Source of the DNA: Octopus vulgaris
Taxonomy: Eukaryota
NCBI GenBank assembly: GCA_951406725.2
Contig: OX597829.1
Location: forward strand, 45,322,001 to 45,386,000
Length of the DNA: 64,000 nucleotides
Reading direction: 5' to 3'
Position 1 is the stretch's first letter. Every line of letters starts with the position of its first letter. Made by a program: the position numbers and the translations under genes. The notes beneath the pieces are model-generated. The model was not told the origin of the DNA and ran no database searches. It saw only the letters and a program-made list of their open reading frames with translations. Shown here in pieces: positions 46,901 to 55,900 of the stretch.

Positions 46901-49900
46901 ATCAGCCGAAATTGCGAGGATGATCCGGTTCTTGACTGAAGATTGAAGGCTTCGAATGTCCCGTCCGTGTTTTTGGTATCGTCTCCTAAATGTTTTACGT
47001 TCTTGTCCCAGTTTGTATTTTTTTACATTTACATATATATATATATATATATATATATATATAGGTGCAGGAATGGTTGTGTGGTAAGTAGCTTGCTCAA
47101 CAACCACATGGTTCCAGGTTCAGTCCCACACTGTAGCACCTTGGGCAAGTGTCTTCTACTATAACCTGAAGCCAATCAAATCCTTGTGAGTGGATTTGGT
47201 AGACGGAAACTGAAGGAAGCCCGTCGTGTGTGTGTATGTATATGTTTGTGTGCGTGTGTTTATCCTCCCCACTTAACAACTGATGTTGGTATGTTTATGT
47301 CCTCGTAACTTAGCGGTTCAGCAAAAGAGACCGATGGAATAAGTACATGTTACCGCTATGTTACAGGGATGTAAACACACCAGCATCACATGTCAAGCTA
47401 TGTTGGGGGGACAAACACAGACACACAAACATATACACACAAACATATACACACATACATACATAAATACACACACACATATATATATATATATATATAT
47501 ATATATATATATATATATATAATAAAAATTTACTTGGAGAAATAAGAAAGTGACACGAGGCGCTCAATCATATAATAACAATTTAACAAATAAAACGTAT
47601 GCATACATACATACATATATGTACATACCCTCATCTATATGTATATATACATGCATATATATATATATGTTTTTTCGTTGTTAGCAAAAAATCCGTTTCC
47701 TTGTTTGTTTTTATGTTTTCGTTTCTCGTTGTGTTCTACGTTTATTTGTGGTGTCCTGTACTCTTATATATATATATATATATATTCCCATCTTTCCGCC
47801 AATTCAACTTACTTTCTTCTTCAATTTCAACTCCTGGTCGATGCCCGCAGCAAGTTCTTAAAAATTTATCTTACTCTTTTTATTTGTTGTTACTACGTTT
47901 ATTCATACACTGTTACGAAAATTTAACCTTTTTAGACTACTTTCAAGCCTTCGCCATAACTTGATTTATCTTTCCTATCTCTCTCTCTACAAAATTTAAC
48001 CTTAGGCTGCCTCAAGCCGTAATCCCATCTCTTCCCATCTTTCCGCCAATTCAACTTACTTTCTTCTTCAATTTCAACTCCTGGTCGATGCCCGCAGCAA
48101 GTTCTTAAAAATTTATCTTACTCTTTTTATTTGTTGTTACTACGTTTATTCATACACTGTTACGAAAATTTAACCTTTTTAGACTACTTTCAAGCCTTCG
48201 CCATAACTTGATTTATCTTTCCTATCTCTCTCTCTACAAAATTTAACCTTAGGCTGCCTCAAGCCGTAATCCCATCTCTTCCCATCTTTCCGCCAATTCA
48301 ACTTACTTTCTTCTTCAATTTCAACTCCTGGTCGATGCCCGCAGCAAGTTCTTAAAAATTTATCTTACTCTTTTTATTTGTTGTTACTACGTTTATTCAT
48401 ACACTGTTACGAAAATTTAACCTTTTTAGACTACTTTCAAGCCTTCGCCATAACTTGATTTATCTTTCCTATCTCTCTCTCTACAAAATTTAACCTTAGG
48501 CTGCCTCAAGCCGTAATCCCATCTCTTCCCATCTTTCCGCCAATTCAACTTACTTTCTTCTTCAATTTCAACTCCTGGTCGATGCCCGCAACAAGTTCTT
48601 AAAAATTTATCTTACTCTTTTTATTTGTTGTTACTACGTTTATTCATACACTGTTACGAAAATTTAACCTTTTTAGACTACTTTCAAGCCTTCGCCATAA
48701 CTTGATTTATCTTTCCTATCTCTCTCTCTACAAAATTTAACCTTAGGCTGCCTCAAGTCGTAATCCCATCTCTTCCCATCTTTCCGCCAATTCAACTTAC
48801 TTTCTTCTTCAATTTCAACTCCTGGTCGATGCCCGCAGCAAGTTCTTAAAAATTTATCTTACTCTTTTTATTTGTTGTTACTACGTTTATTCATACACTG
48901 TTACGAAAATTTAACCTTTTTAGGCTACTTTCAAGCCTTCGCCATAACTTGATTTATCTTTCCTATCTCTCTCTCTACAAAATTTAACCTTAGGCTGCCT
49001 CAAGCCGTAATCCCATCTCTTCCCATCTTTCCGCCAATTCAACTTACTTTCTTCTTCAATTTCAACTCCTGGTCGATGCCCGCAGCAAGTTCTTAAAAAT
49101 TTATCTTACTCTTTTTATTTGTTGTTACTACGTTTATTCATACACTGTTACGAAAATTTAACCTTTTTAGACTACTTTCAAGCCTTCGCCATAACTTGAT
49201 TTATCTTTCCTATCTCTCTCTCTACAAAATTTAACCTTAGGCTGCCTCAAGCCGTAATCCCATCTCTTCCCATCTTTCCGCCAATTCAACTTACTTTCTT
49301 CTTCAATTTCAACTCCTGGTCGATGCCCGCAGCAAGTTCTTAAAAATTTATCTTACTCTTTTTATTTGTTGTTACTACGTTTATTCATACACTGTTACGA
49401 AAATTTAACCTTTTTAGACTACTTTCAAGCCTTCGCCATAACTTGATTTATCTTTCCTATCTCTCTCTCTACAAAATTTAACCTTAGGCTGCCTCAAGCC
49501 GTAATCCCATCTCTTCCCATCTTTCCGCCAATTCAACTTACTTTCTTCTTCAATTTCAACTCCTGGTCGATGCCCGCAGCAAGTTCTTAAAAATTTATCT
49601 TACTCTTTTTATTTGTTGTTACTACGTTTATTCATACACTGTTACGAAAATTTAACCTTTTTAGGCTACTTTCAAGCCTTCGCCATAACTTGATTTATCT
49701 TTCCTATCTCTCTCTCTACAAAATTTAACCTTAGGCTGCCTCAAGCCGTAATCCCATCTCTTCCCATCTTTCCGCCAATTCAACTTACTTTCTTCTTCAA
49801 TTTCAACTCCTGGTCGATGCCCGCAGCAAGTTCTTAAAAATTTATCTTACTCTTTTTATTTGTTGTTACTACGTTTATTCATACACTGTTACGAAAATTT

Positions 49901-52900: not shown

Positions 52901-55900
52901 CTTGATTTATCTTTCCTATCTCTCTCTCTACAAAATTTAACCTTAGGCTGCCTCAAGCCGTAATCCCATCTCTTCCCATCTTTCCGCCAGTGGCGGTGCG
53001 CCCGCCCGCCCACCCCCACCACCAATACCGATGAACATTGATCTCACCCCCACCACCAATACCGGTGAACACTGTTCTCACCGCCACCACCAATACCATT
53101 ATACCCAGTTCTCACCATCTACACCGGATACGCCTTACTCATCTACACCGGGTACGCCCTACTCCCTCCTCCCCCTACTACCCTTCTCCTCATATGCTTT
53201 CACTGTGAAAAGACAAGCTGCTAGCGCCATAGCTCATCAACTGCCCTGCTAGCGCCATAGCTCATCAACTGCCCACCGATCTTACGCTTCCTCCTGACAC
53301 TGCCTCATTCCGACCATCCCCTTTAGTACCCTCCTGCCTCGTAATATCCTACGTTTTTATTTCTTAGGAACCTACACCAACCCTTCCTGCCATCGTTCCT
53401 CCTTACCCCAACCTTCCCACTGGTTGCTCCCCTATATTACCCGCCTCAACTGGACCCCCCTCCCCAACTCAACTCTTAGAATATCTGTATTTCTTTCCTC
53501 TACCTAATTACGTTACTCAGTGACGATAAATGCTGTGACTACAAAGACCCGGGCTGCTTTCTGCAGCAATTCCACATACCCCCTACCCATTCTAAGTACC
53601 CGGATCCCCAAAGTACCCCGATCCCCAAAGTACCCCGGACCTCGTTGCCCCCGTGCCGCTGACACGTTAAAATGCTCAAACCGATCGTGACGATGCCGGA
53701 CCCTCCGGCCCCTGTGCAGGTGGCACGTAAAAAGCACCCAATCCACTCACGGAGTGGTTGGCGTTAGGAAGGGCATCCAGCCGTAGAAACTCTGCCAGAT
53801 TCAGACTGGAGCCTGGTGCGGCCCCTGGCTTCCCAGACCCGGTCAAACCGTCCAACCCGTGCTAGCGCGGAAAGCGGACGTTAAACGATGATGATGATGA
53901 TGATGATGATATATATATATATTAGACGTTTTGGAGATGATGTACAGGTATTTTATATTAGAAGAAATGAGGTACTCAGAAATTCGGATGGTTTTATATT
54001 TACAGATATTTATTTGTATATTACATGTTTTTATACATCATATATATACATGTATTAGCGCTTTCGTCCACTCTTGTGGAGTTGTCAAATTGAAGTAAGT
54101 TTTTGCAGGAATTTTGACTCTTTTTATAGTGTTATTGAATGTGTAGTGGTGGGGAGAGATATACGAGAGTGCAAGAGGGTGATGAATGGGGAGAAAATGA
54201 GAGAGAGCGTGTGTGTGTGTGTTTTTGTATCTGAAAGGGGTGTTAATGAAAAAGAAGGAAAGGAAGAAAAGGGAGAGAAAGAAGAAAAAAAATTTTTTGT
54301 TGATTTCTTTGCAGCTGGTTAGGTTGTCAATAATAATCGACTGTTTACTCCAAGGGGGGCAAAATGTCACTTTTCAAAAAAATTGTCTGGATTTCCTTTT
54401 TATCATTGTCTTGTGAGAAAGAGACTGTGTATGCGCATGTGTGTGTGTCTGCGTATCTGGTAGGAGTGTTAAATGGGAAAGGGGAATGAAAGGAAGGAGG
54501 AGAGAGAGGAAAAAAAAGTATGTGTTTATATTTTTGCAACTGTAAATGATTTTGGCTTTTAGAAATTGGCTTTTTTAGAAATCTTAGAAATTTTTGGCTT
54601 TCTAGAAATTGTATATATATGTATATATATATATACATACACACACATACATACATATATGAAGGGCTTCTTTCAGTTTCAGTTTCTGTCTACCAAATCC
54701 ACTCACAAGACTTTGGTTGGCCCAGGGTTATAGTTGAAGACACTTGCCCAAGGAGCCACACAGTGGGACTGAATCTGGGACCATGTGGTTGGTTGACGAT
54801 GGGGGCTTGCTTCCTAGCTACATGGTTTCGGGCTCAGTCCCACTGCGTGACACTTTGGGCAGGTGTCTTCTGCTATAGCCCTGAGTCAGCCGAAGCTTTG
54901 TGATTGAATTCGGTAGGCGGAAGTTACTGCCGTGTGTGTATGTGTGCGTGTAGGTGCTCAGTGCCTCTCCGAAAGAGAGAGAAAGGGAGATGTTAACTAG
55001 AGGGATGTTTATCCCTTTTGACTAGCAAGAAGATTGATTGAGGTATGAGGTATGTAGGTTTTTGTGTGTGTATTTGGTGGGGACAAGGGGAAAGTTATGG
55101 AAAGAGAGGAAGGAATGGTAGTTATCTGGGGATAGAGGTGTGTATACACATGTCTTTGTGTCTCTATTTGTCTCCTACCACCACTTGACAACCAGTGTTG
55201 GTGTGTTTACATCCCTATAATTTAGTGATTTGGCAAAAAAGACCAATAGAAGAAGTACCAGGCTCAAAATATAAGTACTGGGGGTTTGTTTGTTCAACTA
55301 AAATTCTTCAAGGTGGTGCCCCAGCATGGCCACTGTACAATGACTGAAACAAATGCAGATTCTCAAAGCACTCTGGGCAATAATCTTCTGCCATAAGCCT
55401 TGAGTGAAACTGAGTAGAATGAAAACTGTGCAGAAGACCTTGAATGGGCACTTCATGGTAAACTTTAAATAGGGTAAAGGGTAAAGACCTCCTTTGGTCA
55501 TGAATGACCATGGGATTGCAGCTAGAAAGTTCCCCTCCGAGGCACAAGTCCGGGCAAGGTTGTTTACGGAAGACCAGCAGTCGCCCAAGCATACCAGCCT
55601 CTCCTCTCCACGCCACCAGTGTTATCCAAGGGAAAGACAAAGGGGCTGATACAGCTTGGCACCAGTGACATTGCCACTTCATTTCCTACAGCTGAGTGAA
55701 CTGGAGCAACGTGAAATAAAGTGTCTTGCTCAAGAACATAGCACATAGCCTGGTCTGGGAATTGAACTCACTACCTCATGATTATGAGCCTGATGCTCTA
55801 ACCGCTGAGCTATGCACTTCCAGGCTTTATATATATTATCAATTTTACATCAATACTTGTCCCTTGGGTGCCTTCAACAAAGGAATCCATTTTTCGTTCT

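Follow-up and report, generated by a model that had tools for sequence, protein, structure and literature searches.

The DNA considered here is a 64,000-nucleotide stretch of the Octopus vulgaris genome (assembly GCA_951406725.2, contig OX597829.1, positions 45,322,001 to 45,386,000 of the forward strand; hereafter the window, numbered from its first letter), and its principal feature is a retroelement at 47785-53910 that begins with a long tandem array. The element abuts a (TA)n run at its 5′ junction (47765..47784, no strand assigned), taken to be the target microsatellite, with a target-site duplication that is not separable from the TA repeat. It opens on the forward strand with a type-A head of 21.1 tandem 247-bp monomers, putative promoter units that were defined by period analysis and by their match to a parent monomer (47785..52989, +). 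The head passes without interruption into a C-rich segment of 540 bp (52990..53529, +), the equivalent of an L1 tether, which is 86-91% identical to the non-repeated 5′ untranslated region (UTR) of a parent long interspersed nuclear element (LINE); the conserved anchor GGTGCRCCCGCCC opens this unique 5′ UTR at 52995, and small tandem repeats of variable number (VNTRs) of 34, 24 and 28 bp lie inside it. Comparison with the parent and counts of junction 25-mers place an internal deletion at 53529..53530 (+), where approximately 3.15 kb of an endonuclease-reverse transcriptase (EN-RT) open reading frame (ORF) are gone. The remainder consists of the ORF's last codons and the 3′ UTR, including a conserved RTE-type 3′ end (53530..53886, +, by parent match), a (GAT)8 tail evident in the sequence (53887..53910, +) and, directly after the tail, (AT)6 (53911-53922). 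An earlier, sequence-only reading had described array, body and tail as one continuous unit set in TA repeats and ending in an RTE-type 3′ end, and both descriptions hold.

Across the array the period of 247 bp is kept with 99% matches, 14 of the 20 full units are identical to one another, and the unit variants are arranged in a period-3 pattern; block repeats are seen both here and in a 37-unit array elsewhere in the genome. Units that are 99% identical raise the question of whether the array's length is an artefact of assembly, and this we consider scarcely credible, given the unit-specific variants, their period-3 order and the many further loci with 14-37 units and variants of their own.

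An autonomous parent and an internal deletion

Searches of the 2.8-Gb assembly (227 contigs) recovered six loci, L098 and L100-L104, in which a head is followed by positions 1-540 of the body, about 3.15 kb of additional sequence, positions 541-650 of the body and the tail. The insert is one open frame, of 1108-1120 amino acids in L101-L103, with Pfam matches to RVT_1 (1.4e-29) and Exo_endo_phos (5.7e-8), a YADD reverse transcriptase motif and a PHD-like Cys/His motif whose Pfam PHD match (6.3e-4) is below the PHD cut-off. A single ORF with an apurinic/apyrimidinic endonuclease followed by a reverse transcriptase, no ORF1 and a microsatellite 3′ tail, here (GAT)n, are the marks of the RTE clade, and by this anatomy the parent is likely to be an RTE element. 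A search for homologs of its protein yielded 1219 sequences, the best 120 of which (55-63% identity) are EN-RT-PHD proteins without clade names. Membership of the L1 clade, with its ORF1 plus ORF2 and poly(A) tail, was considered and is ruled out by the single long ORF and the (GAT)n tail.

The window element matches ORF-bearing copies on both sides of the deletion. Its 247-bp monomers, a shortened version of the parent's ~333-390-bp monomer, are 94-97% identical to the monomers of L100, L101 and L181, and its 3′ part (53530..53886) is 90-94% identical to L100, L159, L165 and L181; identity of the 3′ part to L101 is 80% over a partial match only, L101 having additional repeat units. In the genome, the 25-mer across the deletion junction is found 172 times as an exact match, compared with 90 times for its counterpart across the undeleted junction. 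When 20 of these 90 parent copies were taken in position order, 12 had head A (at least 13.7 units in one of them), 8 were truncated within the 5′ UTR, and a frame of more than 1000 amino acids was retained in 10. Matches to a "G2 head" on the UTR-truncated parent copies were read as a flank repeat and not as a head.

Since the window element joins the parent's 5′ UTR to the last codons at 53529/53530, it fits what Kojima (2018) calls a bipartite non-autonomous LINE: the 5′ end matches the parent, the 3′ end matches with the ORF deleted, and the deleted form has been amplified. Judged from sequence comparison, the element derives from an autonomous EN-RT LINE with a single ORF and has lost the interior of that LINE together with its coding capacity; the 172 exact junction copies, forming a dispersed deletion family, agree with the earlier proposal of one mobile, non-autonomous unit.

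Other ORF-bearing loci show further arrangements. The head of L161 is a new 86-bp tandem unit cut from monomer A, in at least 13 copies. In the chimeras L141 and L158, ORF sequence leads into the end of the body and the tail of the short family, which suggests that the reverse transcriptase switched from a non-coding to a coding template.

A dispersed family and its head types

The possibility that most body-plus-tail copies lack tandem heads fails in two samples. A genome search with the element's body gave 1609 first-look candidates, of which 40 were scored; 27 of the 30 best copies have a head and the other 3 are truncated, cut at the body start, while the tail region was matched in 30 of 30 and a (GAT)n tail was printed for 29. 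The second sample, independent of score, was drawn from the 1749 genome matches of a shared body motif, the first 100 of which represent 66 loci; 60 were analysed (5 were already in the set and 1 was left out), and in position order 50 of these have a head, 10 are truncated and 25 have tandem heads according to Tandem Repeats Finder (TRF). Of 17 loci with the deletion junction, taken in position order, head A is present in 13, and the other 4 break off within the body. The wider set of deletion-junction locus records, some of which are duplicates, has head A in 58 of 65, and every junction-bearing locus of this first family that possesses a head has type A. In four contig runs, no listed contig spans the deletion junction by 31 letters on each side; runs X12 and X16 contain monomer-to-monomer joints. 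In X12 and X17 the summed depth over the monomer greatly exceeds that over the body, a measure that is not a copy number, does not rank parts and was set aside.

Family copies have constant 3′ ends and scattered 5′ ends, the expectation for target-primed reverse transcription. Among 44 family copies, 31 have a run of (TA)4 or longer at the 5′ end and 19 have one at the 3′ end, and target-site duplications are mostly masked by TA runs. The excess of TA at the 5′ end relative to the position after the tail (in the L001-L278 set of loci) possibly reflects insertion at microsatellite edges or TA added in 5′ joining.

Monomer length differs by subfamily (247, 270, 274, 303, 318, 333, 348 and 392 bp), and the arrays are tied to bodies. 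Exact junctions between units of the 247 type number 93 and lie at 12 loci, all of them linked to body plus tail; a word common to A monomers has 1432 matches genome-wide, and the first 100 fall into 15 clusters (contig C1), each of which is then followed by body. No body-free array, or orphan satellite, occurs among these 12 loci or among the 15 clusters in the matches listed, and within them an identity as free satellite DNA is ruled out. The family had earlier been credited with seeding satellites by retroposition; long arrays were indeed found, all still joined to an element.

A second element lies at 12670-13763 on the forward strand, with a type-B head of ~1.3 monomers (12670..13257, +) and a 5′ UTR (to ~13513) fused to a 3′ UTR and (GAT)10 (13258..13763, +), as assigned from parent-like matches. 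The two window elements had been described as sharing one architecture, and for head, body motifs and tail they do: each element has one copy of each of four body motifs (13258/52995, 13273/53008, 13417/53344 and 13472/53416), which have no further occurrence in the window, and the tail variant CCAACCCGTGCTAGCGCGGAAA occurs in the window only at 13699 and 53852, the remaining 7 window tails that fit the pattern reading ...ATGC(T/C)AGCATGGAAA. The likeness does not extend to the length of the array, at only ~1.3 units, or to the left TA flank, which has few units. Moreover, the 457-bp length given for its monomer includes a locally expanded T30 run, sister arrays having units of ~435 bp (range 359-515). 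The two heads are unrelated, as had been claimed, giving no alignment (z 1-3 against 40 two-base-block shuffles, the measure used for all head-to-head comparisons) and falling into separate BLAST components. The 5′ part of the second element is 89-92% identical to ORF-bearing L237 and L241 and its 3′ part is 95% identical to L237; going by these matches, it arose by a deletion of its own from a related subfamily of greater age. Rather than one family with two heads, then, the window holds independent deletion products of two related subfamilies. Right behind the second element's (GAT)n, another RTE-type tail has inserted tail-to-tail (13768-13930, −), creating a long inverted repeat whose microRNA-model matches in Rfam are all below the gathering score.

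The genome search for the second element gave 1125 first-look candidates, and its 30 best loci comprise 27 with head B, 2 with the unrelated head C and 1 that is truncated. Head references were drawn from the sampled loci themselves, so that rare types match themselves; on this basis the heads form the lineages A, B/D/H (mutually related), E and F/G. Head C stands apart in BLAST but shows a weak link to G (z 4-8). Neither B and C, B and F, nor C and F can be aligned (z at most 2, and likewise by BLAST). Remote homology of head A to other heads was rejected, as the look-alike words in L158 fail BLAST at E 1e-4. Nevertheless, the short family shows, for 49 copies bearing a B, C, D or F head (up to 6 compared per type), 96.4-99.8% identity of body plus tail from one head type to another (mean 0.992 for B vs C), and near-identical bodies with non-alignable heads require head exchange. 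A chimeric junction common to L172 and L190, in which an E head and ~85 nt of UTR precede a partial F head and body, is by its sequence order a replacement intermediate, with the new head before the old one, that has itself been copied. Head exchange had been proposed for a family taking in both window elements; it is upheld in the second element's family and not in the first, whose headed junction loci are all of type A. Older coding copies have G- or F-like heads that are mostly non-tandem.

Two further tandem arrays deserve mention. A sub-lineage (L151, L152, L154, L168, L177, L182, L184, L188 and L193) has a second array of 3-8 copies of a ~156-bp unit inside the body and has head D wherever a head is present. 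At 21450-21919 of the window there is a two-copy 235-bp tandem with 89% matches, which gave no BLAST match to C-type heads.

Unrelated heads and chimeras are what might be expected of a non-autonomous composite comparable to SVA, the hominid retroposon assembled from parts of unrelated origin with an internal VNTR, and the sequence-only reading had suggested an SVA-like composite, taken here as a captured satellite joined to a foreign body and an RTE tail. The octopus element does resemble SVA in being non-autonomous, multi-kb and endowed with tandem repeats of variable number. Unlike those of SVA, its parts all derive from the parent LINE; one autonomous element contains head, body and tail in the same order, which means that it is not a patchwork of unrelated origin, and no free satellite source was seen at the 12 loci of the 247 type or in the 15 clusters among the matches listed. 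A composite origin is therefore very improbable.

The window also contains a two-ORF LINE of the L1/Tx1 type (5336-10049, +), in which a gag-like ORF1 with a CCHC knuckle is followed by EN-RT in three broken frames; a CR1-like LINE (15501-18835, −) whose EN-RT frame is open over 949 amino acids and is preceded by a short frame; and an open frame of 301 amino acids, rich in Ser and Glu, that may be a host exon (36749-37654, +).

Array turnover and the possible role of the monomers

The longest array, on a coding copy, has at least 37 units of 391 bp (14.6 kb), and other long ones measure 27.7 x 338, 25.9 x 268 and 18.8 x 239 bp. Unit variants are common across the units of one array and track body sublineages, and no substitution common to a unit position between unrelated loci was seen in the array comparison. 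Loci L106 and L107, which have 19.8 and 18.8 units, have a common 5′ flank and junction and thus represent one insertion, duplicated; one substitution is present in 17 of 19 units of one array and in 0 of 18 of the other. In this pair, arrays have turned over at the DNA level after insertion, and they probably do so in general.

Another means by which long arrays could arise is growth mainly at the time of insertion, when the reverse transcriptase might jump from the RNA 5′ end to an identical monomer, or copy a circular monomer RNA in the manner of a retrozyme. The great uniformity of some arrays is in keeping with this (identical units in 18/18 for L143/L256, 16/16 for L264 and 7/7 for L105), as are the chimeras and the duplicated UTR start in L153, which would represent template jumps or nested insertion. 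However, the array-wide change in L106/L107 followed insertion, and no ribozyme was found, either by Rfam in L101, L076 and L061 or with strict hammerhead and hepatitis delta virus (HDV) descriptors, used without positive-control validation, in nine head types. A 5′ self-cleaving ribozyme is a trait of some RTE families only. For the sequences scanned, a retrozyme with a hammerhead in each monomer was rejected, and growth at insertion as the main source of long arrays seems rather unlikely.

As the sequence-only reading had proposed, the head is structurally like that of mouse L1: its monomers stand in tandem at the 5′ terminus, in variable number, with the outer unit partial. Their position, their retention in non-coding families, their retention of CpG (observed/expected 0.76-1.41 vs 0.55 in the window) and the analogy with mouse L1 together suggest that the monomers could serve as redundant promoter units. 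The explanation that we favor, and consider probable, is that the window element is an internally deleted copy of a LINE, likely of the RTE clade, whose tandem-monomer 5′ end probably supplies redundant promoters, with a history in five steps. First, as its copies show, the parent consists of a monomer head, a unique 5′ UTR, a frame of ~1,100 amino acids for EN-RT with a PHD-like motif, a 3′ UTR and (GAT)n. Second, a single 3.15-kb deletion, recorded in the common junction, gave rise to a non-coding family whose copies number at least 172. Third, RNA would initiate within a monomer, and the parent protein would copy it from the common 3′ end into TA-rich sites, new copies stopping at scattered 5′ positions. 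Fourth, arrays would lengthen, shorten and homogenise as DNA, as seen in the one locus pair, which would restore the units lost in each round. Fifth, lineages would exchange heads at the conserved anchor or close to it; the pattern is plain in the second family, and the likely route is template switching by the reverse transcriptase or insertion of a truncated copy into another copy's 5′ UTR.

Several observations weigh against this explanation. The monomers are AT-rich (32-42% GC), a YY1-like word, CGCCAT, occurs in only 6 of the 9 head types, and there is no sharp common site for 5′ ends (p=0.46 in 40 multi-unit arrays, several end calls being shortened by indels). Clustering of 5′ ends at p about 0.001 was obtained in sets partly selected by monomer score; as a start-site signal it is significant in such sets only and not in multi-unit arrays. 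With regard to head exchange, only 2 of the 43 branches of the body tree are well supported, and the tree fixes neither the number nor the direction of swaps. In addition, none of the ORF-bearing copies found carries head B, C, D or E, and TRF reports tandem periods in 3 of 20 older ORF-bearing copies, one being L247. The latter, a candidate coding copy with head B, is actually an ORF fragment with a short element inserted next to it.

Some of these points would equally suit an element with this origin and structure whose monomers are passengers: host promoters in the flanks or the unique 5′ UTR would drive transcription, and unequal exchange would lengthen the arrays neutrally. Multi-unit arrays without a sharp 5′-end cluster, AT-rich and pyrimidine-skewed monomers and an in-place expansion that requires no function are all compatible with passengers. 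On the other hand, the non-alignable heads (A; B/D/H; C; E; F/G) each form a tandem array, and always at one and the same position, the deletion family has retained its head over many copying rounds (the 13 head-A and 4 body-truncated loci given above), and CpG has been retained in the monomers. Passenger monomers are thus an unlikely alternative, if a slightly stronger one than growth at insertion.

Known systems and significance

Each ingredient of the octopus element has a precedent, and the comparisons that follow refer to the portions of the cited sources that were covered. The monomers of mouse L1Md (A, F/Gf/Tf) are promoters whose types replace each other (PMC6454616, PMC5381506, PMC3600994). 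Mouse and octopus elements alike have tandem monomers at the extreme 5′ end, in variable number and with the outermost truncated, a unique tether ahead of the ORF, monomer types that are unrelated yet supplant one another, and recombination between families. They differ in that the octopus element has a single EN-RT ORF, a (GAT)n tail and no ORF1; its units are 225-540 bp and AT-rich, whereas those of the mouse are ~200 bp with a CpG island; and its arrays reach 14.6 kb, show no sharp truncation site and have a putative promoter role. Zhou and Smith 2019 (PMC6454616) treat 5′-terminal monomer arrays as a special feature of mouse L1 and describe the duplication mechanism as unclear.

Bipartite RTE derivatives, namely Bov-A, RTESINE1/2 and WALLSI3, are also known (Kojima 2018, PMC5786205), and like the octopus family they keep only the parent's 5′ and 3′ ends after an internal deletion and were amplified as a family. 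The octopus element adds a multi-kb monomer head, and the word "tandem" is absent from the main text of PMC5786205. Exchange of non-homologous 5′ UTRs, with template switching as the proposed mechanism, has been described for SolRTE in Nicotiana (Hartig et al., bioRxiv 10.1101/2022.11.04.512097). SolRTE is thus alike in exchanging non-homologous 5′ ends of an RTE LINE; it differs in being a plant element, in switching among coding elements where the octopus case concerns a non-coding family, and in that "tandem" and "monomer" have no occurrences in the text covered. In octopus itself, RTE-2_OV is an RTE LINE with one ORF of 1109 amino acids containing EN, RT and a zinc finger, and with UTRs of ~600 nt (Petrosino et al. 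2022, PMC9115989), and the main text describes no monomers or tandem head for it. Identity with RTE-2_OV was rejected on a comparison by primers only, 0 of 4 published primers matching parent copy L101 within 4 mismatches. The portion covered of an octopus repeat paper (PMC13282606) makes no mention of monomers. Microsatellite tails of RTE elements (PMC6007223) and the expansion of RTE-BovB in cephalopods (PMC10294476) are likewise known. Titles and abstract openings, in mostly open literature outside Repbase, Dfam and the octopus supplements, gave no RTE-type LINE with a tandem monomer head; while the ingredients are each known separately, no report of the combination was found in the literature covered.

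It is conceivable that an RTE-type LINE has independently evolved the strategy of mouse L1 and carried it further, with at least four non-homologous tandem cassettes, putative promoters, that coding and non-coding family members exchange at a conserved 5′ anchor, and with each insertion a self-renewing array of 1-15 kb, a proposal that we offer tentatively, as somewhat short of probable. If true, the family would be a natural test system for the regeneration of monomer promoters and a source, scattered through the genome, of new satellites and promoters. Multi-kb "satellites" in the octopus genome are retroelement heads, and annotation of tandem repeats and transposable elements may split or mislabel them. 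Finally, the family amounts to a second monomer system in a different type of LINE. Its young copies run to hundreds, its monomers fall into several lineages, and both intact parents and chimeric intermediates are present, which lets truncation, regeneration and promoter replacement be measured directly.

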